Shown here in pieces: positions 12,332 through 34,490 of a stretch of DNA of 51,534 nucleotides. The stretch's first letter is position 1; every line of letters starts with the position of its first letter. The notes under the pieces are model-generated. The model had not been told where the DNA came from. It saw only the letters and a program-made list of their open reading frames with translations, and made no database searches. The translations under genes were made by a program, and so were the position numbers. Source of the DNA: Escherichia phage vB_EcoS_ULIM2; sequence record OQ850291; one strand, 5' to 3'.

Positions 12332-12562
12332 TTACCACTCCTTAGTTTTAACTGACACCTTACCGCTAAAGTTTCCCTGGTTGTCGTCTGATGAAAGACC
12401 TTTGAATCGCATGTCAATCTCGCCAGACGGAATCTTATTGCCATCAACGAATCGCATCATGCAAGATCCGTAAGCGTAAGTAACGCAGTCTCCATTTTTA
12501 AGATTCTGGGCGCAACCAGTCAGGATGAATGCAGCAGCAATAATGGTGATTAACTTTTTCAT
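12332..12562 (-). CDS. cor: Small outer-membrane lipoprotein, Cor-like superinfection exclusion candidate (76 aa)
   Basis: Signal peptide with lipobox LTGC; placement next to tail genes as for Cor in T1-like and lambdoid phages; identity by analogy only. Confidence 0.45.
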   Translation of the reverse strand: MKKLITIIAAAFILTGCAQNLKNGDCVTYAYGSCMMRFVDGNKIPSGEIDMRFKGLSSDDNQGNFSGKVSVKTKEW

Positions 12563-12591
12563 TTGTATGTCCTCGTCGTTAGTGTGATTGC

Positions 12592-12620
12592 ATTGTATGT
12601 CGCATTTACTTTTATTGCAA
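12592..12620 (-). promoter_or_regulatory. Sigma70-type promoter for the lipoprotein operon (TTGCAA-17-TACAAT)
   Basis: Minus-strand -35 TTGCAA (12615-12620), 17-bp spacer, -10 TACAAT (12592-12597), then GAGGA RBS and ATG at 12562. Confidence 0.5.
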
Positions 12621-12641
12621 TAGCACGATTACAATTTTTTC

Positions 12642-12810
12642 GTGTAACAAGTGTCTATTTTTGTAACCGGAACGGGTGTTACAAAATCCACCCCATCCGA
12701 CCGCAGAGAGATATGATAAAAACTCTATATAATATATATAGATAGATAATATTTAATTTTAGCTTTATATATATAATTATTGTTGTGTAACAGTTGTCTA
12801 CCGTGTAACA
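12642..12810. repeat. Iteron-like repeats in an AT-rich divergent control region
   Basis: GTGTAACAAGTGTCTA (12642-12657) and GTGTAACAGTTGTCTA (12785-12800), further GTGTAACA at 12803, inverted repeat TTGTAAC-N10-GTTACAA (12661-12685), alternating TA tract 12724-12781. Confidence 0.5.
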
Positions 12811-13029
12811 GGTGATTTGATTGATTCGTCAAATTTCTATCACATATGTTCAAAATTTAATCAATCTTGATTCTATTTGTAGGTATCTCTGTATTTCTAA
12901 GAAAAAGCTGTTACAAGTATTACGCAATAGACACCACACAAAAATAGACTTAAGCCATTGATTACGTTGATGCTGGTTGTAACTTGAGCGATATAGACAC
13001 GCAATTACACACAAATTACATGTATCCGA

Positions 13030-13057
13030 TTGACTAAACGCTGTTAATGGCTATAAT
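13030..13057 (+). promoter_or_regulatory. Sigma70-type promoter for the recombination operon (TTGACT-16-TATAAT)
   Basis: TTGACT at 13030-13035 and TATAAT at 13052-13057; leader TTCATCGTAAACGAAGGAGA precedes the ATG at 13089. Confidence 0.6.
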
Positions 13058-13088
13058 GGATTCATCGTAAACGAAGGAGATAAACGCA

Positions 13089-14153
13089 ATGTTCCAAGTA
13101 TTCACGTCAAGCCAGCTTTCCAATGACGAGTATCACAGCAACGAAGGTTGGGCGGCAGAGTATGTAAGCGGATCGAGTCTTGCAGAAATCTATCAGACTT
13201 GTCCGGCTAACTGGCGATTCAAGAAGAACGAGACAACGAAAGCTCTGGAGTTCGGCACTCAGTCACACACCAACTTTGAGAGTCGCGATCTGTTTACTGC
13301 AACGTATGCTCGCTGCCCTGCTCCGTCAGAGTTTAAGGATCTGATTACTTCACAAACCGCTCTGGCTGCAAAATTAAAATCTTTTGGCCTGAAAGGTACA
13401 TCAGGAAAGCAGTACCCGGACCTCATAAAAATGATGGTTGATTGTGGTGAAGAACTCAACGTTCAATACCTCATTGAACTGATTGCTGAGGCTGAGGCGC
13501 GCGCTGAAGGAAAGAAATTGGTTGACGCTGACAAATACGATGCTTGCATGAAGATGAGAGCCATCCTTGAGCAGAATCCCGATCATGAAGCGTGCATTAA
13601 CAGCGAAACAGCTCAGCGTGAAATCTCAATCTTCGGTGAAATATCCGGAGTCAAGGTTAAGGTTCGACTCGATCACCTTGACTACAAAGAGAACGTGCCA
13701 GGTCGTGTGCTGACCGGTTATGATGAAAATGGTGATCCGGTATTCGAAGACGTAATTTTCCCGGAAGCACTAATTATCACAGACTTCAAAACTACGATGA
13801 GCGCCAACCCGTTAGAGTTCCCGAGACTGGCATACAATCACGGCTATTACCTGAAGATGGCATTGCAGCATGACCTGCTACGTCGCGCAATCCAGGCTGG
13901 CGCTTTTGAAGGAAACTTCCCGGAAGATATTCCGATCGTAGTTCGATTGCTTGCGCAGGAGAAAAAAGAGCCTTATATCGCACTGGCTTACCGTATGACA
14001 ATGGAGCAAATCAGGATCGGTCGTAACCAGTACATTAGCGTAGTCCACACTTACAAGGCTTGCTCTGAAATGGATGTTTGGCCTGGATACGCTGGCGACG
14101 CAAGCGAGATCGAACTTGAAACGCCATCATGGGTGCGTTACCAAAATAAGTAA
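13089..14153 (+). CDS. Putative PD-(D/E)XK exonuclease (recombination, 354 aa)
   Basis: IITDFKT nuclease-like motif; located directly upstream of Erf and SSB genes. Confidence 0.5.
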   Translation: MFQVFTSSQLSNDEYHSNEGWAAEYVSGSSLAEIYQTCPANWRFKKNETTKALEFGTQSHTNFESRDLFTATYARCPAPSEFKDLITSQTALAAKLKSFGLKGTSGKQYPDLIKMMVDCGEELNVQYLIELIAEAEARAEGKKLVDADKYDACMKMRAILEQNPDHEACINSETAQREISIFGEISGVKVKVRLDHLDYKENVPGRVLTGYDENGDPVFEDVIFPEALIITDFKTTMSANPLEFPRLAYNHGYYLKMALQHDLLRRAIQAGAFEGNFPEDIPIVVRLLAQEKKEPYIALAYRMTMEQIRIGRNQYISVVHTYKACSEMDVWPGYAGDASEIELETPSWVRYQNK

Positions 14154-14227
14154 ACGGCACAAATAGCTAAACAAATAATTAATGAGGTGTTATAATGCAC
14201 CTCATACACCAATCAGGAGAAGTTAAG

Positions 14228-14875
14228 ATGCAATTATCACCAGAAACAAACGAAATCCTTCCTGCCCTGTTTAACGCTCGCAACAAATTTGCGAAAGCAA
14301 AGAAGGACGCAAAAAACAATCACCTGAAAAATTCATACGCAACTCTTGATGCGATGATGGCAGCGGTTAGTCCGGCGCTAACCGACAACGATATTATGAT
14401 CCTGCAATCAATGCTTGATACAAGCACGGAAACGACCTTCCATCTTGAGACGATGTTGATTCATAAATCCGGGCAGTGGGCCAAATTCTTCATGATGATG
14501 CCGATTGCAAAACGCGATCCGCAAGGCGTAGGTTCCGCAATGACGTATGCTCGACGTTACTCATTAGCCGCAGCGCTGGGGATTAGCCAGAGTGATGACG
14601 ATGCTCAGCTTGCAGTGAAATCTGTCAAGGACTGGAAAAAAGAACTTGATGCGTGTGAAGATATCGAATCACTGAAAGAGGTATGGGCTAACGCTTACCG
14701 CCAGACGGACACGGCGAGCAAGTCAATCATTCAGGATCACTACAACGCATTAAAGGCTAAGTTTGAGATCGGTAAAGCTCGCGGCATTCGACCTGCACAA
14801 CCAGAACAGAAAAAACAGGTTGAAGCAACGAGCGCGAAGCCTGTAAAATCTCAATCAATCACAAACTTCGAATAA
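14228..14875 (+). CDS. erf: Erf-family single-strand annealing protein (215 aa)
   Basis: NARNKFAKAKKD...NSYATLD and GSAMTYARRYSLAAALGISQSDDDA resemble conserved Erf blocks (P22 Erf TSSYARKYCLNGLFGIDDAKD); ATG at 14228 with AGGAG RBS. Confidence 0.7.
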   Translation: MQLSPETNEILPALFNARNKFAKAKKDAKNNHLKNSYATLDAMMAAVSPALTDNDIMILQSMLDTSTETTFHLETMLIHKSGQWAKFFMMMPIAKRDPQGVGSAMTYARRYSLAAALGISQSDDDAQLAVKSVKDWKKELDACEDIESLKEVWANAYRQTDTASKSIIQDHYNALKAKFEIGKARGIRPAQPEQKKQVEATSAKPVKSQSITNFE

Positions 14876-14921
14876 TCATCAGGGCGGCTTCGGTCGCCCA
14901 TAAATTTTAGGAGAGAAAATT

Positions 14922-15347
14922 ATGCATATTATCACTGGCGAGATCCGTAAAGAACCTAAGATTCTTGAGCGTAACGGCGGCAATACTTACATCATTGAGC
15001 TGGCAGAAAGCTACAAACCGCGTGATGGCGATCGTGAATACACCAACTACACATTCTTTTTTAGCGATGGTGGAAAGCATGGCCTTGCTGACTGGTATCG
15101 TGAAGCGTTCCAGGTTGGTCGAGTAATCTCAGTATCGTGCGAGACTTTGAAGATCTCATCAAGAGAGCATAACGGAACGATCTACAATTCTTTGCAGGCG
15201 GCTGATTTCCCTAAGCTGATATTCAGCCAACGAGGCCAAAGCAATCAGCAACAACGAGCACCACAGCAACAGCAGCAGCGCACTCAACATCAGTCACAAC
15301 CTCAACCAAATCCTCAGTCAACATTCGACGACGACATTCCATTCTAA
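14922..15347 (+). CDS. ssb: Single-stranded DNA-binding protein (141 aa)
   Basis: Q/P-rich linker and acidic C-terminal tip DDDIPF, the canonical SSB tail. Confidence 0.8.
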   Translation: MHIITGEIRKEPKILERNGGNTYIIELAESYKPRDGDREYTNYTFFFSDGGKHGLADWYREAFQVGRVISVSCETLKISSREHNGTIYNSLQAADFPKLIFSQRGQSNQQQRAPQQQQQRTQHQSQPQPNPQSTFDDDIPF

Positions 15348-17814: not shown

Positions 17815-17840
17815 CAACAAAAAACCGCCCGAAGGCGGTT
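17815..17840 (-). terminator. Leftward terminator after the primase-like gene
   Basis: CCGCC-cgaa-GGCGG hairpin with a U-run on the minus strand, immediately after the stop at 17839. Confidence 0.55.
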
Positions 17841-18774
17841 AGAGCAGGTCACTTGCTGAGAATAATTTGGCCTGCATTCCTGAACGGTATCCTCCAGGAT
17901 TCGGTATGATTATTTTTAATTGTCGGTCGTCTGCCATGTACAAGGTATCCTTGTCTGAAGGTTCGCACGCCACCCTTACTTCTCGATCACCTTTATACCT
18001 GTATGCAACCATTTCGAGGTTTTCAGGGGTGAAGCAGGCCCATACCTCTTGCTTTGTGTGAAATGCAATATGCTGAGCATCAATCCAGTTAAGGCATAAG
18101 TAGATCGCCTTTTCAGTTTTACCAGTCACGGCAACCGAACAACTCGTATATTTCTTCGCGTAAAATGACTCCCTCCCTTCCTCATCAATAATCAAAATAT
18201 TGCAAAACTCGTCATCAAGCCCATCCTCATGCACAAGTTGACACGGTATAGTGTGAAATACCGACTCACCGCCATCCTCGCTACGTTTTACGCCAACGTC
18301 GAACGATTCAGTGGGTAGAGACTCAAATATGCTTAGAGGCGTGTTTACGCGCTTCTCTGTGCGCTCCATAACTTTCATCACTGCTTCATGGTCTGCCATC
18401 ATAACATTGACGCCAGACACCGGAGTTCGGCGCGCTTTTTCATTGGCCTTGACAATGTATTCCTGCGGAACCTTTCCGAGAAATCTCCCCAGGATGTTTA
18501 TACATTCTCTGTACGGCATACCAGTTAATTTCATCAGCCAGCCAATACCAGAGTCGTTACCGCATGAGTTGCAGATCGCACCGCCGTCGCCCGGGGTGTT
18601 CAGGTTATCAGTCCAGCGAAAGCGGTCTTTACCGCCGCAGTTTGGGCAGGGTTGGTGCTTCTTATTAAAAACATCATTCGGCAATCCGCAGATTGATTGG
18701 AAAGCCTCGCGCCATAACCCCTTCATGTACGGTAAAACGTCCTCTTTCTGAAACATCATAAATTCTTCGTTCAC
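17839..18774 (-). CDS. Putative DNA primase-like protein with zinc ribbon (311 aa)
   Basis: CPNCGG-(16)-CNSCG Cys4 motif near the N-terminus; GTG start; adjacent to helicase. Catalytic motifs not confirmed. Confidence 0.4.
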   Translation of the reverse strand: MNEEFMMFQKEDVLPYMKGLWREAFQSICGLPNDVFNKKHQPCPNCGGKDRFRWTDNLNTPGDGGAICNSCGNDSGIGWLMKLTGMPYRECINILGRFLGKVPQEYIVKANEKARRTPVSGVNVMMADHEAVMKVMERTEKRVNTPLSIFESLPTESFDVGVKRSEDGGESVFHTIPCQLVHEDGLDDEFCNILIIDEEGRESFYAKKYTSCSVAVTGKTEKAIYLCLNWIDAQHIAFHTKQEVWACFTPENLEMVAYRYKGDREVRVACEPSDKDTLYMADDRQLKIIIPNPGGYRSGMQAKLFSASDLL

Positions 18775-18835: not shown

Positions 18836-19288
18836 TTAACTAAAAATGCTATTGGTCGTTCCGATATCTTCCTTCTTCACAACCCGCATGAATTTCTTGT
18901 TCTTGCATCGCTTCTCAAGGCACTTGCCGTTACCATCAAACTTGAGGTCGAATCTCAGCCATGCTGCGCGGTATCCTTTACACCCCTGTCGGCGGTAAGC
19001 GCGATGCGCAGCCTCAGCACCTTGCCACGAAATCATGTTGCGTTCTTTCCAGCCTTGCACCGTCTGATTTGTTACTTTTAGTGCCTTTGCGCATGCCGCA
19101 GGGCCACCATAATATTCGATAAGCGCATCAAGTCGTGCTCGCAATCCAGCGCGTGTTTCTTCTTTATGAATATAGAATCCGCAGCGCTGTCGTGGCTTTT
19201 TGTCTTTACCGCGTCGAGTTCCGTTGTTACCATTGATGTGACGTTTATCGATTTCACCAGTTGACTCCGCGATGCGTTGAATACTCAT
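18836..19288 (-). CDS. Putative DNA-binding protein with Cro/YdaS-like helix-turn-helix (150 aa)
   Basis: AKALKVTNQTVQGWKERN resembles Cro/YdaS-type HTH; basic termini; a palindromic box lies in its leader. Confidence 0.45.
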   Translation of the reverse strand: MSIQRIAESTGEIDKRHINGNNGTRRGKDKKPRQRCGFYIHKEETRAGLRARLDALIEYYGGPAACAKALKVTNQTVQGWKERNMISWQGAEAAHRAYRRQGCKGYRAAWLRFDLKFDGNGKCLEKRCKNKKFMRVVKKEDIGTTNSIFS

Positions 19289-19301
19289 CTTGATTCTCCT
19301 A

Positions 19302-19344
19302 TAGCACTTTTTGCTAAAAACGTTTACTGTATGCCGTGTATTAT
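19302..19344 (+). promoter_or_regulatory. Box-type promoter for the helicase operon
   Basis: TAGCAC (19302-19307), TTGCTA (19311-19316), 22-bp spacer, TATTAT (19339-19344), enclosed by inverted repeat CGTTTAC/GTAAACG. Confidence 0.5.
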
Positions 19345-19368
19345 AGCGTAAACGCTACAATGATTCAA
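19340..19368 (-). promoter_or_regulatory. Sigma70-type promoter for the HTH gene, face-to-face with the helicase promoter
   Basis: Minus strand TTGAAT (19363-19368), 17-bp spacer, TATAAT (19340-19345); the -10 overlaps the plus-strand -10 by 5 bp. Confidence 0.5.
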
Positions 19369-21400: not shown

Positions 21401-21813
21401 TTACAGACAAAGGTGATTATTTAGAGTTTTACGAACGAGATCCTAGCGATACGAGAAAGGAGGATGCTCATCAAGTTGATTGTGTGTCTTGGCTGAAATA
21501 CAATTTCCCTCACCTTCTATTTTGGCACACAGTTAATGAAGGTGAAAAAACAATCACGTCGGCGCTCAGGGATGAGCAGGCCGGATTACTTAAAGGCGTG
21601 TCAGACTTCGTTATCCTGATTGGCGTCAACTCACGATACCCGTTTGCAGCAATCGAACTCAAGCGGGTTAATAAGTCAGGCAAAGGAAAGGCGTCACCAG
21701 TCAGCGACAAGCAAAGGGAATTTCTCCGAAAGGTCCGGGAGCGTGGCGGCTTCTCTGCCGTCGCATACGGATTCGAGCAATTCAAGATCGCAATTTACGA
21801 AATTATGAAATAG
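21397..21813 (+). CDS. VRR-NUC-like nuclease domain protein (138 aa)
   Basis: SDFVILIG ... AIELKR resembles the D..E.K core of VRR-NUC/PD-(D/E)XK domains; follows the helicase gene. Confidence 0.5.
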   Translation: MITDKGDYLEFYERDPSDTRKEDAHQVDCVSWLKYNFPHLLFWHTVNEGEKTITSALRDEQAGLLKGVSDFVILIGVNSRYPFAAIELKRVNKSGKGKASPVSDKQREFLRKVRERGGFSAVAYGFEQFKIAIYEIMK

Positions 21814-21853
21814 CACTTTTTGTTAAAACTGCCGGAATGGAATCTGGCATTAT
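21811..21853 (+). promoter_or_regulatory. Box-type promoter for the methyltransferase gene
   Basis: TAGCAC (21811-21816), TTGTTA (21820-21825), 22 bp, CATTAT (21848-21853). Confidence 0.45.
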
Positions 21854-28720: not shown

Positions 28721-28763
28721 ATGATACACCGCCAATGGTACACGCGTTTTGCAAAAAGTGCTA
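28721..28763 (-). promoter_or_regulatory. Box-type promoter (leftward) for the ATPase gene
   Basis: Minus strand TAGCAC-N3-TTGCAA (28749-28763), 22 bp, TATCAT (28721-28726). Confidence 0.45.
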
Positions 28764-28767
28764 TTGG

Positions 28768-29184
28768 TTATAAGTATTTGGCCTCAAAGGTTGTGCCGTC
28801 AGCAATACTAAAACCCACCTCTTCGCGGAATAAGGTCCAGCGGCAACCATCCTCATCAAAGATGTAACCAGCCACTCCACCGAGAGCGCGACCGCTTTCC
28901 ACCTGGTAGCGTTTGCCAACTTTGAATGATTTTTTCATTGGGTTGCGATGGTCAAGCCCGGTGCATTTTAGTGTCTTCGTTTTCAGTTCTACGAATGTTG
29001 CATTAAGCGGATTACCCAATGAGTCTTCACCATGTGCGGTCATTTTATCAAGCACATGCCAATGCTTAGGCGCGAACTGAACTGAGATATTACCCCCATC
29101 GTCTATGCGTCCTTTATAAAGTTTGTTTGCTTCAAAGAATAATTTCATGGTGGATGAGGTGCATTTGAGTTTGATACTTTTCAT
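28768..29184 (-). CDS. Hypothetical protein (138 aa)
   Basis: ATG at 29184 preceded by the conserved AACCAATCAGGAGA leader. Confidence 0.5.
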   Translation of the reverse strand: MKSIKLKCTSSTMKLFFEANKLYKGRIDDGGNISVQFAPKHWHVLDKMTAHGEDSLGNPLNATFVELKTKTLKCTGLDHRNPMKKSFKVGKRYQVESGRALGGVAGYIFDEDGCRWTLFREEVGFSIADGTTFEAKYL

Positions 29185-32019: not shown

Positions 32020-32831
32020 ACTGATTCCTCACTGGCGAATACCTCGCAAGATTCACTGCATGAGCCTGTGTCGAATGATTTTGCCCCACGAACCCTTGCG
32101 GCTACCTCATCCCTCGACTGTGGAAACATCTGTATAATGTCACCGAGTGAGCGCCTTCCTCTGTACATGTCAGATGAAGACTCTTTCTTGTTGTGCTCAC
32201 TGATTGTGTTAATGAATAGCCTTGCAAGCTCCGGCTCATCCTTACAAGCAAGAGCTAGCTTGAGTTCTGACTTCTTGATGCAGAAAACGCAGTTACCAAG
32301 GTGTTCATCAATCCCAAGATCGAAAGGCATGTCACGCCAGAAGTTGATAACGTCCTGCTTATCAAAGTCAGATATGTCTGCAAGGTAACTGAACCCATCA
32401 GCTGCCTTTAATCTCTTTGGCTCATCCGCACGAATGCCAATCCATCGCTGATAATTACCCTTGCCATACTTCTTCTCGCAATACTTTTCAAATGGCTTAG
32501 TCTTCATCCTGTTTGTACAGAATGCACCTCCCTGGTATGGATTTCCGTACTTCCTTAGCATTCTTATCCACCCAACAAGATCGTGATGAATATCGTCCAC
32601 GCTTACAACTTCGAATGATGGGGTTCCGCGGAACTTATCGCTTGGCAAGCATCTTAAGCAAGTTATACCCCTGGGAATCATTGACGATACATTTCGAATA
32701 AACTCATAAGTCATTGGATGTTCTGCGCCAGTGTCCATGTAAATAACCTCAGCGTCAGGATAAATCTTGAGAACCTCAAGTGTCATGTATGCCGAAGTCC
32801 TGCCACCACTAAAACTAATTACCTGATTCAT
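32016..32831 (-). CDS. PP-loop ATPase of the PAPS-reductase-like family (271 aa)
   Basis: N-terminal ISFSGGRTSAYM PP-loop (SGGxxS) motif; ATG at 32831 with AGGGG RBS; the track ORF (to 32900) runs through its promoter. Confidence 0.55.
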   Translation of the reverse strand: MNQVISFSGGRTSAYMTLEVLKIYPDAEVIYMDTGAEHPMTYEFIRNVSSMIPRGITCLRCLPSDKFRGTPSFEVVSVDDIHHDLVGWIRMLRKYGNPYQGGAFCTNRMKTKPFEKYCEKKYGKGNYQRWIGIRADEPKRLKAADGFSYLADISDFDKQDVINFWRDMPFDLGIDEHLGNCVFCIKKSELKLALACKDEPELARLFINTISEHNKKESSSDMYRGRRSLGDIIQMFPQSRDEVAARVRGAKSFDTGSCSESCEVFASEESV

Positions 32832-32865
32832 TTCGACCCCTATCTGTGAGCTAAATAACAACTGC

Positions 32866-32909
32866 ATAATAGCCAATCCTCCGCTACTGGTCGTTAGCAA
32901 AAAATGCTA
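32866..32909 (-). promoter_or_regulatory. Box-type promoter (leftward) for the PP-loop gene
   Basis: Minus strand TAGCAT-N4-TTGCTA (32895-32909), 23 bp, TATTAT (32866-32871). Confidence 0.45.
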
Positions 32910-33099
32910 TTCCAATAATTGCTCATTATTCCATCAATTGTGGAATATGTGGAATAATTCTGATTGTTATTGATTGCGAATGACGAAACGTGATTATTGC
33001 ATGATGTGCAACAGTTGGTTGATTTGTTGATGAGAACGCAATGATTGTTAGAGGGAGGATCTGGTGTTGCCCGGCTCGCCTGGTAGTCATCTCCATTTT

Positions 33100-33114
33100 T
33101 AGCAAAAAGTGCTA
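33100..33114 (-). promoter_or_regulatory. Second palindromic box upstream of the PP-loop gene, no obvious -10
   Basis: TAGCAC-N3-TTGCTA on the minus strand; the position 22 bp downstream is not -10-like. Confidence 0.35.
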
Positions 33115-33391
33115 TCGATTACGATTATGCTTGATTGTGTGTTAATCCATGTATATGATTTGCATAAATCGCAATCGTAGACAAAATTACACCAAATTAC
33201 GCCCTATAATATACATATAGATATATGTATATATATAATATATAAGTGTTTTTTTATTTATATATATAGATACTATTATTTGTAATATGGCTGTATAGCG
33301 TGTCTACTATGTTAATCGTTGGATGCTCTGGTTATGATATTCATGTTTATATATACAGTAGTTTTATCGGCTCATATTTATATGGGAAAAG

Positions 33392-33418
33392 CGATTAACA
33401 CGATTAACACGATTAACC
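33392..33418. repeat. Three tandem copies of a 9-bp unit (CGATTAACA)
   Basis: CGATTAACA CGATTAACA CGATTAACC read directly, inside the AT-rich divergent region. Confidence 0.6.
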
Positions 33419-33442
33419 ACACTTAAAATCGGCTCGCGAGCA

Positions 33443-33494
33443 TTGACACAAGCGGGTCGCCGTGTAACACTACGATTAGAGACACAGTGTTACA
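33443..33494 (+). promoter_or_regulatory. Candidate rightward promoter with operator-like inverted repeat
   Basis: TTGACA at 33443-33448; perfect inverted repeat TGTAACACT (33463-33471) / AGTGTTACA (33486-33494); the -10 is weak (TAACAC), so the promoter call is tentative. Confidence 0.35.
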
Positions 33495-33532
33495 TGTTAA
33501 TCATGGTGTATATTGAAAATGAGGAGAAAGAT

Positions 33533-34108
33533 ATGAGTTCTTACCAATCAGACGCAGTGCAGGCAGCAATTCAGGCGGCTTACGAGAAATCTGGCGTGAC
33601 CGTTGAGAAGCGCCAGGAGGCAAAAGTGACCGATGTTATCCGTGCCGCTTGCGATCAGCTTTATGGTGATGGCGAGAATACCGAGTTCACATTCGATGCT
33701 ATTCAGATGGCTGAGGCAGCAGTAAGAAAGTCAGTCCCTGACGCTGATGATGATACCGTTAGCGGATATGCCGAATCCTGGTTGCTCGGGAAGACGGAAG
33801 AGATTAACGAGAAGTTTAAATCATCATTCATCACCCCGATCGTATCGCGCCACTTCTCCAAGATCGGCAAGTCGGTCAAGGTGAGCGTAACCATGAACGA
33901 TGAGAAGTTGCGAGTCGTTACTATCTCAGTGAGTGACGAAGAAGTTCCGGTGAAGAAGCGCCGCAGTCGGAAAAAAGTTAGCCTGGCTGATTGCCTGGAT
34001 TCGTTTGTGGTTGATGTGGGTAAACTGGCTGATAGCGAATTGATGACTCGTGACGTAAACGAGATCGTTCGCCAGATGAAGGCGCATATCGAAAAATGTG
34101 GATTATAA
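33533..34108 (+). CDS. Hypothetical protein, first gene of the rightward accessory block (191 aa)
   Basis: ATG at 33533 with GAGGAG RBS; the track ORF (from 33443) overlaps the promoter region. Confidence 0.5.
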   Translation: MSSYQSDAVQAAIQAAYEKSGVTVEKRQEAKVTDVIRAACDQLYGDGENTEFTFDAIQMAEAAVRKSVPDADDDTVSGYAESWLLGKTEEINEKFKSSFITPIVSRHFSKIGKSVKVSVTMNDEKLRVVTISVSDEEVPVKKRRSRKKVSLADCLDSFVVDVGKLADSELMTRDVNEIVRQMKAHIEKCGL

Positions 34109-34120
34109 GGAGAGGTGACT

Positions 34121-34450
34121 ATGTTTACTAATATGTTTGATCCGAAGGTGATGGAAAGACGAAAACTGGAAAGTGAGAAGCAGGAAGAGAACATCAAGAA
34201 GATAGCTGATGCCGTGACTGGTAAAAAATTAATCAAAGTAAACCTTAATACCATTGGCTCAGCGTACGACGTAAGAGGTCTTGGCAAGAAAGAGGCGTCA
34301 GTGAAGGTTCTTAGGCTTATTCACGAAATTAAGAATCAGTACAAGATAACCCTAAAGATGAAAAGCCTTGAGGTTCCGCACTGTGAGCTTGTGAACATCA
34401 CGGAGCCGGAAGGGTGGGAAATAACCGACGTCGAGTTTATCGTAGAATAG
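34121..34450 (+). CDS. Hypothetical protein (110 aa)
   Basis: ATG at 34121 with AAGGAGAGG RBS. Confidence 0.5.
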   Translation: MFTNMFDPKVMERRKLESEKQEENIKKIADAVTGKKLIKVNLNTIGSAYDVRGLGKKEASVKVLRLIHEIKNQYKITLKMKSLEVPHCELVNITEPEGWEITDVEFIVE

Positions 34451-34490
34451 CACTTTTTGTTAAAACCGGATCGGGATAACCTGGTATAGT
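34448..34490 (+). promoter_or_regulatory. Box-type promoter
   Basis: TAGCAC (34448-34453), TTGTTA (34457-34462), 22 bp, TATAGT (34485-34490); perfect 8-bp inverted repeat GGGATAAC/GTTATCCC (34473-34496) around the -10. Confidence 0.55.

Follow-up and report, generated by a model that had tools for sequence, protein, structure and literature searches.

Phage T1 belongs to the seven classic T phages, and the question raised by the two regions described here is whether they are the sites at which phages of its family start DNA replication. The regions lie in the genome of Escherichia phage vB_EcoS_ULIM2 (sequence record OQ850291; the window analysed is the whole stretch of 51,534 nucleotides), a T1-like siphovirus genome (Tunavirus, Drexlerviridae). 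In the first-pass annotation the two regions had been singled out for their common words and proposed to be early promoter/operator hubs and candidate replication origins. No defined replication origin for T1-like phages was found in the searchable literature, and the literature searched held no usable transcript maps or origin mapping for the T1 family; a 2024 re-analysis of phage TLS reported no iterons anywhere in its genome (PMC11447400), and in other papers on T1-like phages origins were guessed from GC skew (PMC6714547, PMC10716491). Sequence comparison shows the two regions to be paralogous: each is a copy of one cis-acting module of 0.35–0.45 kb, conserved across Drexlerviridae. A description of such paralogous modules was not found in the searchable literature, which did not include the 2004 T1 genome paper. 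The reading we favour, at about even odds, is that these modules are twin iteron origins of the type found in staphylococcal pathogenicity islands (SaPIs) and in P4, each joined to an immediate-early promoter.

A paralogous module and its putative initiator

The two regions are the following:

12563–13088: region 1, between a Cor-type lipoprotein gene (− strand) and recE (+ strand)
about 32832–33532: region 2, the non-coding span between a leftward PAPS (phosphoadenosine phosphosulphate)-reductase-like gene and a rightward left-end gene starting at 33533

Region 2 is longer than earlier stated, because the PAPS-reductase-like gene starts at ATG 32831 and not at TTG 32900. As first annotated, leftward and rightward genes flank each gap and both regions are AT-rich (GC content 0.327 in region 1 and 0.350 in region 2, against 0.457 for the genome); together they make up 2.4% of the genome and contain 18 of its 19 copies of ATATATA, in keeping with the TA tracts already noted there. 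They had also been called the two largest non-coding stretches; in a crude scan for gaps free of open reading frames (ORFs), parts of them (12746–13088 and 33106–33442) came second and third, the gap in first place being partly taken up by an ORF left out of the scan for overlap.

The module occupies about 12626–13029 in region 1 and about 33116–33443 in region 2. Paralogy was tested by aligning region 1 to every 600-bp window of its own genome in phages of four genera. In all four genomes the best match of region 1 elsewhere in the genome was region 2, in the same orientation, with these alignment scores:

this phage (Tunavirus): score 58; genome-wide median 20, 95th percentile 26
TLS (Tlsvirus): score 63; genome-wide median 21, 95th percentile 26
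Rtp (Rtpvirus): score 141; genome-wide median 20, 95th percentile 26
SRT8 (Sertoctavirus): score 96; genome-wide median 21, 95th percentile 27

The score of 58 lay above 300 of 300 local-composition shuffles, and in Rtp and TLS the alignments were collinear over 300–430 bp, from the left words through the promoter. Read from the left, the common plan is a word cluster, a short GC-richer spacer, a first TA block (consensus CTATATAAT), 20–30 bp, a second TA block (TTATTATATATAT), a right word cluster partly inverted relative to the first, a sigma-70 promoter and an operon.

Conservation in relatives, on which the first-pass annotation had made its proposal depend, was found at two levels, the words being kept within Tunavirus and the module layout across Drexlerviridae. 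Region 1 with its flanks is 90–96% identical to about 60 Tunavirus records (top match AV106, 96%), and region 2 matched Lg3, ISF002, ADB-2 and T1. The region upstream of recE was AT-rich (GC 0.34–0.40) in 46 of 46 loci, over RecE identities of 42–99%, and in most of the 31 loci measured the core centre lay 300–360 bp before the recE ATG. Neither region had a match in 72,556 plasmids, nor did region 1 in an E. coli genome collection, and these searches revealed no satellite with the module.

At the centre of each module lies a TA core:

12713–12783: TA core of module 1, an imperfect AT-rich palindrome (arms 12733–12753 and 12755–12775) with TATAAT-like blocks inside
33205–33290: TA core of module 2, an imperfect palindrome (arms 33206–33235 and 33259–33288), kept in both Tunavirus sub-lineages

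The core of module 2 aligns with that of region 1. When duplex stability was calculated in 60-bp windows, the module 2 core was the least stable segment of this phage (z 5.8) and the module 1 core the second (5.6), the next window having a z of 3.4. Taking this phage, TLS and Rtp together, the two cores were in each case the two least stable windows (z 4.3–5.8; next 3.4–3.6). Variable columns made up 7% of 12710–12800, versus 20% in the lipoprotein and recE coding flanks, and in 57 of 61 matching records the identity over the 171 bp of 12700–12870 reached 95% or more, compared with 90–95% for most of the 1.1 kb around it. Judged from these alignments, the TA cores are more constrained than the neighbouring genes.

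The words that flank the cores are specific to each group of phages:

Tunavirus and IME347: TGTAAC and TGTCTA (in this phage also TTAACA)
SRT8: TGTAATC and TGTCTAA
TLS-like phages: TGTTCC, TGTTCAC and GTTCAC/GGAACA, plus GGCGTAAA
Rtp: GTTACG and GTATAC, plus TCCGCGGAAA

Since the words differ by genus while layout and hosts are common, a co-evolving phage protein would be a likelier binder than a host factor. Word orientation was tested with GTTC[AC]C in 31 loci, 30 of them outside Tunavirus. Left of the core 15 of 19 words were on the plus strand, and right of the core 22 of 23 were on the minus strand (Fisher P = 5e-7). They stood at stereotyped places, near −85 and +143 relative to the core centre, and the density of GTTCAC was 2.06 per kb upstream of recE versus 0.27 per kb elsewhere in the loci.

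The candidate trans-acting factors encoded by this phage are:

27123–28691, − strand: MCM-like AAA+ helicase with DUF3987 (Pfam E 6e-42), the proposed initiator
17839–18774, − strand: primase of the P4 alpha / T7 gp4 type with a Zn ribbon (Pfam PF08273)
18836–19288, − strand: Cro-like helix-turn-helix (HTH) protein, expressed from the 19368–19340 promoter, the alternative candidate for the word binder

In the AlphaFold2 model of a 99%-identical homologue of the helicase (pLDDT 88.8), residues 447–516 have an H-b-H-H-b-b topology, and Foldseek matched the helicase to MCM with a probability of 1.0. The model gives the DUF3987 protein the fold of an MCM-family AAA+ helicase whose C-terminus is a winged helix, the architecture of Cch/SaPI Rep. 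Its C-terminal segment is less conserved than its ATPase (66% versus 86% identity against SRT8, 47% versus 66% against TLS); this segment is the most divergent one against SRT8 and TLS, and against Rtp the N-terminal segment is slightly more divergent. The primase matched P4 alpha over residues 27–92 in BLASTP (E 1e-11) and over alpha residues 27–262 in tblastn (E 1e-9 to 4e-13), the two having the Zn-ribbon/Toprim primase region in common.

The anatomy, paralogy and conservation of the modules, the instability of their cores, the orientation bias of their words and the fold of the helicase were observed; the word binder and a start of replication at the modules are what we infer. Through its C-terminal winged helix the helicase would bind the words that flank the TA core on either side, then melt the core and load itself, and the P4-alpha-type primase, the product of a separate gene, would prime synthesis. 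Core opening might be aided by transcription from 33131–33159, from 12899–12870 or from the adjacent early promoters. The conserved IHF-core and Fis-like sites of region 1 also count in favour of an origin. The module promoters point rightward, into recE-erf-ssb from region 1 and into the left-end early genes from region 2. The more specific proposal, that the two origins are read by a self-loading MCM-like helicase through a co-evolving winged helix that recognizes genus-specific iterons, is tentative, although quite possible.

Words and promoters in the two regions

Most of the words listed at first were recovered. GTGTAACA-N2-TGTCTA is present at 12642–12657 and 12785–12800, as claimed, and a third GTGTAACA lies at 12803. 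The two inverted repeats are exact, with 9-bp arms (TTTTGTAAC-N10-GTTACAAAA at 12659–12686 and TGTAACACT-N14-AGTGTTACA at 33463–33494). All four genomic copies of GTGTAACA fall within the two regions, together with seven of the eight copies of TGTAACA, 6 of 14 of TAGACA and 5 of 9 of GATTAACA; the shared vocabulary is concentrated in these two regions and nowhere else in the genome. The shared '25-bp element' (12994–13019 and 33178–33200) is the best alignment of the regions with TA cores masked, but it is marginally above chance, as its score of 29 was reached by 7 of 500 local-composition shuffles. The three tandem CGATTAACA units do exist (at 33392, 33401 and 33410, the third ending in C), but in one sub-lineage only.

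The proposed resemblance to DnaA boxes failed. The two TGTGGAATA words are present at 32939–32956, about 5 bp left of the position first given, but they match the DnaA box with one mismatch at best, and the first copy is not conserved among relatives. The consensus TTWTNCACA occurs in neither region and three times elsewhere in the genome; with zero consensus boxes in both regions, a DnaA-type (oriC-like) origin was ruled out. The suggestion of candidate replication origins lost its DnaA part, kept an origin-like anatomy and gained a paralogous conserved module and a plausible encoded initiator.

The words and small sites of the two modules are:

12642–12686, + strand: left word cluster of module 1, GTGTAACAAGTGTCTA and then TTTTGTAAC-N10-GTTACAAAA
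12785–12865, + strand: right word cluster of module 1, GTGTAACAGTTGTCTA, another GTGTAACA with a period of 18 bp, and GGTGATTTGATTGATTCGTCAAATTTCTATCA, a conserved block
12848–12862: candidate Fis-like palindromic site, a perfect palindrome of the Fis-type consensus GTTCAAAATTTAATC inside the conserved block
12907–13019, + strand: promoter-proximal words of module 1, TGTTACA, TAGACAC (twice), TGTAAC and AATTACAC
12951–12963, − strand: candidate IHF core, the exact consensus AATCAATGGCTTA, kept within an otherwise variable stretch
from 33178: TAGACAAAATTACACCAAATTAC element, directly left of the TA core of module 2
33299–33418, + strand: right word clusters of module 2, GTGTCTAC-TA-TGTTAATCG, then CATGTTTATATATACAGTA, then CGATTAACA three times

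In an alignment of 15 Tunavirus sequences the arms CGTGTAAC, TGTCTA and TTTTGTAAC/GTTACAAAA were conserved and the spacers varied, including the 10-nt spacer; read from the alignment, conserved word arms with variable spacers are a footprint-like pattern. Seven copies of TGTAAC lie around the core of region 1, which is bracketed by an inverted pair at 12677–12686 and 12783–12792. In region 2 the CGATTAACA copies at 33392–33418 are inverted relative to 33310–33318. This phage belongs to the 'type A' Tunavirus sub-lineage; in 'type B' phages, region 2 carries TAGACAAATGTTACAC, the reverse complement of the composite word GTGTAACATTTGTCTA of region 1, at the place of the three CGATTAACA units. 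This replacement marks the composite word as a real unit and the triplet as lineage-specific.

T1 itself has TGTATA, CGTATA or TATACA in place of TGTCTA/TAGACA at three word positions (the equivalents of 12652, 12795 and 33178), in both regions, and JMPW2 has the same word change in region 2 only; word specificity may be drifting or changing in a co-ordinated way. The CATGTTTATATATACAGTA word (33343–33361) was kept in all Tunavirus-type sequences aligned, from both sub-lineages, and partly in the most distant one (L061). It was rejected as a LexA box, being of the form xTGT-N8-ACAG without the C of CTGT, and the most distant relative keeps the right half only. A site scan found no CRP sites in either region.

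Both sigma-70 promoters ascribed to region 1 were borne out. TTGACT-16-TATAAT (13030–13057) has 11 of 12 matches to the sigma-70 hexamers and TTGCAA-17-TACAAT (leftward, 12620–12592) has 9 of 12, and each was kept in 15 of 15 Tunavirus sequences. The promoters of the two regions, a further canonical promoter and the genes next to region 1 are:

13030–13057, + strand: recE-erf-ssb promoter, with the lowest variation in the alignment (3% of columns); annotated in T1, SA32RD and Chapo
12592–12620, − strand: promoter of the Cor-type lipoprotein gene, in the low-variation block 12590–12620; annotated in SA32RD
33443–33471, + strand: immediate-early promoter of the left-end genes, TTGACA-17-(TGT)AACACT, its geometry kept in both sub-lineages
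33131–33159, + strand: sigma-70-like promoter TTGATT-17-TATGAT, reading into the core of region 2, with the composite word GTGTTAATCCATGTATA in its spacer
12870–12899, − strand: candidate promoter TAGAAA-18-TAGAAT, which would read into the TA core of region 1
19368–19340, − strand: third canonical sigma-70 promoter, of the HTH-primase operon
12332–12562, − strand: Cor-type lipoprotein gene (Pfam Phage_lipoprotein)
13089–14153, + strand: recE, in the recE-erf-ssb block (13089–15347, + strand)

The canonical intergenic sigma-70 promoters noted in the genome number three (13030, 19368 and 33443–33471), and phage TLS likewise has only three (PMC11447400). Two of these three likely immediate-early promoters are carried by the two modules. 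The description of the regions as early promoter/operator hubs holds in so far as both are divergent promoter regions; its operator part rests on overlaps of words with promoters, such as that of TGTAACACT-N14-AGTGTTACA (33463–33494) with the −10/+1 of the 33443 promoter. In relatives the 33131 promoter has the hexamers TTGACC/TACAAT, TTGTCA/TAGAAT or TTGACT/TACAAT, with a constant 17-nt spacing. The 12870–12899 promoter, in which the hexamers are conserved and the spacer is variable among the 15 sequences, is a weaker candidate. The TATAAT inside the core of region 1 (12728–12733) was rejected as a plain promoter, its −35 position lying in a variable stretch of the Tunavirus alignment; any promoter activity there would require an activator. 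A promoter annotated in the Chapo record maps to about 12708–12733.

Origins, control hubs and other readings

Cumulative GC skew, a check proposed at the outset, turned at about 11.5, 19.5, 26.5 and 33 kb, only where gene orientation turns; it follows gene orientation and is therefore uninformative on a replication origin. A lambda-type origin was rejected, as both modules are non-coding and a scan of replication-module proteins turned up no O-like initiator family. GATC occurs 245 times in the genome (about once per 210 bp), never in the 706-bp span 12465–13171 around region 1 and once (33058) in the 1.07-kb span 32579–33653 around region 2. Such scarcity largely follows from the AT-richness, and it is the reverse of what a GATC-rich, oriC-like origin would show.

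Several points weigh against the modules being origins. They lie 4–14 kb from the helicase gene, whereas in SaPIs the origin immediately follows rep. Transcription control would account at least as naturally for the fixed orientation and distance of each copy relative to an immediate-early promoter, the overlap of the 33463–33494 inverted repeat with a promoter is operator-like, and the encoded Cro-like HTH protein is a possible word binder. No sequence similarity to the helicase/origin-binding domain of P4 alpha was found in any frame of this phage, TLS, Rtp or SRT8. As for the words, the clean convergent pattern is found in TLS-like phages only, the orientations around the core of this phage being mixed (+ + − on the left, + + − + on the right). 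The two SRT8 copies favour partly different words, TGTAATC having six copies in region 1 against one in region 2, and TAGACA one against five. Cross-genome word sharing is moderate (P = 1e-4 in this phage, 0.04 in TLS, not significant in Rtp), and strict word sharing between the two copies was given up as a claim, being moderately significant and uneven across genera. The near-invariance of the cores is stricter than a plain unwinding element requires. Finally, T1 replication is heavily recombination-dependent, so that the role of a defined origin may be confined to early infection.

In the main rival reading the modules would be transcription-control hubs only, with the words as operators or activator sites, most plausibly for the Cro-like HTH protein (18836–19288). 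This protein would switch off or tune the two immediate-early operons, possibly by looping across the bendable core. We regard this as rather unlikely. It has in its favour that each module ends in one of the three canonical sigma-70 promoters, at a fixed orientation and distance, that the conserved 33131 promoter has the composite word in its spacer, and that duplication of a promoter with its control region would be a simple way to co-regulate two operons. The HTH protein, which has its own canonical promoter at 19368, was matched by Foldseek to the all-alpha Cro proteins of Xfaso 1 and N15 with a probability of about 1.0 and a target TM-score of about 0.7, but with weak E-values (0.02 or worse). 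Its N-terminal basic arm, NGNNGTRRGKDKKPRKR, is near-invariant across genera, and its putative recognition helix varies by genus, as the words do; speculatively, the helix might read the genus-specific words and the arm might touch the TA-rich DNA, itself near-invariant. However, the 19368 promoter has no module, and the intergenic gap there is only about 93 bp. Repression has no need of a 300-bp upstream stretch with the least stable segment of the genome at its centre; the words reach 390 bp from the promoter, most of them far from any promoter, and half-site spacings of 19–23 bp centre to centre are unfit for a simple Cro dimer. Convergent words at an AT-rich centre and an MCM-like winged-helix helicase suit origins better. 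The two functions, origin and control hub, are mutually compatible.

The cores and their surroundings might also be upstream activating or architectural DNA (curvature, UP-like tracts, IHF, Fis, H-NS), with words that were merely inherited and have no phage binder. Paralogy alone would explain the sequences common to both copies, and the extreme AT-richness, the conserved IHF core (12951–12963) and the palindromic Fis-like site (12848–12862) are consistent with such a role. It is nevertheless improbable: phages of the same host carry different words at the same positions, which argues against host factors, the word arms are conserved where the spacers vary, the orientation bias of the words around the core is strong, and the core lies 250–330 bp upstream of the promoter, past the usual reach of UP elements or Fis.

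Quite improbable is the possibility that the cores matter because they are transcribed, into non-coding RNAs, long leaders or the message for a 46-aa protein. Conserved promoters do point into both cores (33131–33159 rightward and 12899–12870 leftward), a promoter is annotated in Chapo at the equivalent of about 12708–12733, and the T1 record AY216660 annotates at 12821–12961 (+ strand) a 46-aa coding sequence, CPTT1_049, with a TTG start and AGGTGA upstream. This ORF is open in 15 of 15 Tunavirus sequences, but its variable columns number 8, 15 and 12 on codon positions 1, 2 and 3; this is not a coding-like pattern and therefore makes protein-level selection doubtful. Moreover, one paralogous core would be read rightward and the other leftward by the two candidate promoters, region 1 yielded no terminator-like site, and the 51,534-nt genome contained no Rfam family and no tRNA. 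Two other ORFs were rejected as genes, 32926–33105, which is broken by 1-nt indels in relatives, and 12563–12745, which overlaps a variable spacer.

The left part of region 2 has contents of its own. Base 1 of the T1 record, where the annotated 2.8-kb terminal repeat (1–2800) starts, aligns with position ~32996, and the duplicated module begins at ~33116, about 120 bp to the right. On these alignments region 2 is composite, with the T1-end position and 21-nt repeats, both missed in the first-pass annotation, to the left of the duplicated module:

32908–32958: inverted array of ATTCCA (twice) and TGGAAT (twice), conserved, outside the duplicated module, 40–90 bp left of the T1 base-1 equivalent
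32996–33115: the T1 base-1 equivalent and, to its right, a conserved block rich in inverted repeats
32892–32910 and 33097–33115 (exact), − strand: copies of the 21-nt repeat in region 2
19301–19319 (+), 21810–21828 (+), 34447–34465 (+) and 33097–33115 (−): example copies of the 21-nt repeat in the genome

TTGCA-N5-TGCAA and GCAATGATTG words lie just right of 32996 (32997–33050), and GCAATGAT words are also present at the ends of the Rtp record. The arrays near 32996 are candidate pac or small-terminase recognition sites, and the SU57 paper placed the pac site of T1 and other T1-like phages in the corresponding region. That the features common to both regions are themselves such packaging sites is extremely improbable: although the T1 end maps inside region 2 and is adjoined by conserved repeat arrays (32908–32958 and 32997–33090), the duplicated module starts beyond it, region 1 has the module and no known genome end, and the arrays nearest the T1 end (ATTCCA/TGGAAT and GCAATGATTG) are not common to region 1.

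The intergenic 21-nt repeat of T1-like phages, aaATAGCACnnnTTGnTAAAA, already described (PMC11447400), has 29 matches in the genome versus 2 expected by chance; good copies of the known repeat ATAGCACnnnTTGnTAAAA number 27. It is separate from the words and the module reported here. As an element shared by the two regions the repeat was rejected, its copies being in region 2 only and already described. It precedes most other operons and is conserved across genera. An extended −10 (consensus gGTATAGT) follows 19–20 nt after its 3' end, which places the repeat at about −50 to −32, and a GC-rich inverted repeat, CCCGA..TCGGG, usually stands between the two; the copy at 33097 has no downstream −10. 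As its TTGnTA is 22 nt from the −10, the repeat resembles an activator or UP-type element and not a −35. From its sequence context it looks like an element of a phage-specific promoter class.

In conclusion, among candidates for the replication origins of the T1 family the two modules are the strongest so far. If they are origins, they would be of the iteron/AT-rich kind, duplicated, joined to promoters and read by an MCM-like initiator, and would provide the first defined origin–initiator pair for one of the original T-phage families and an instance, in a bacterial virus, of a bipartite origin with MCM-type loading. The SaPI/Cch paradigm of a self-loading MCM-like initiator, set up for Gram-positive mobile islands, would then also cover a large family of virulent enterobacterial phages, a natural series for decoding winged-helix-to-iteron specificity would be available in the genus-specific words, and the design of T1-type phages, dependent vectors or satellites would be informed. 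If they are control hubs instead, the modules would be the immediate-early switch of the family, which is likewise undescribed. The analysis makes the T1 origin question testable, with two modules of about 400 bp, exact coordinates and two named candidate binders.

Comparison with known systems

The lambdoid OR resembles the two regions in its divergent promoters, in its repeated (pseudo)palindromic sites and in the encoded Cro-like HTH protein. In contrast, the present phage is virulent and has no CI partner, its words extend over about 400 bp around a core that melts easily and their spacings do not fit Cro dimers.

The primary origin of T7, oriF and oriG of T4 and the ori of lactococcal phage c2 are transcription-linked origins, activated by adjacent early transcription. 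As in these, a promoter reads into an AT-rich unwinding element within an early control region that is non-coding, here from 33131–33159 into the core of region 2. Unlike the present modules, those origins lack flanking arrays of specific iterons; inspection by eye revealed no promoter reading into the core in TLS or Rtp.

SPP1, a virulent siphovirus of Bacillus, has two origins, oriL and oriR, with the same boxes for its initiator G38P beside AT-rich DNA. The presence of two origins with the same boxes and AT-rich neighbouring DNA is the likeness to the present modules. SPP1 differs in that it uses a small origin-binding initiator with a DnaB-type helicase and a loader, and in that one of its origins lies inside the initiator gene.

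Satellite phage P4 has two separate cis elements, ori and crr, with the same 8-bp iterons TGTTCACC in both orientations near AT-rich DNA (NC_001609), as the two modules here are paralogous and have common words; the primase of this phage is homologous to the primase part of alpha. Iteron-like words of TLS-like phages, TGTTCAC (e.g. CGTGAACACGTGAACAGCG), match 7 of 8 bases of the P4 type-1 iteron TGTTCACC, at 413–440 and 28759–29012 in TLS compared with 9310–9413 in P4. This likeness may be coincidence or convergent recognition. On the other hand, the words of the present phage (TGTAACA, TAGACA) differ from the P4 iteron, no sequence similarity to the alpha helicase/origin-binding part was found, and the helicase is MCM-like and separate from the primase.

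SaPI origins have 6–12 iterons of 5–6 nt around an AT-rich centre, at least two per side in opposite directions, and the SaPI Rep is a self-loading SF3 or MCM-like protein whose C-terminal winged helix binds the iterons, the primase being encoded by a separate gene (PMC9371898). The present modules differ in being found in two copies per genome, 4–14 kb from the helicase gene and not immediately downstream of it, in their larger size (350–450 bp), in their near-invariant TA palindrome and in being joined each to an immediate-early promoter; the words of this phage are of mixed orientation, and the system is known here from sequence and predicted fold. Like SaPIs and the Cch-encoding staphylococcal cassette chromosome mec (SCCmec), however, they have words that flank an AT-rich core, convergent in the TLS-like relatives, and they are accompanied in the genome by a predicted winged-helix helicase and a separate primase.

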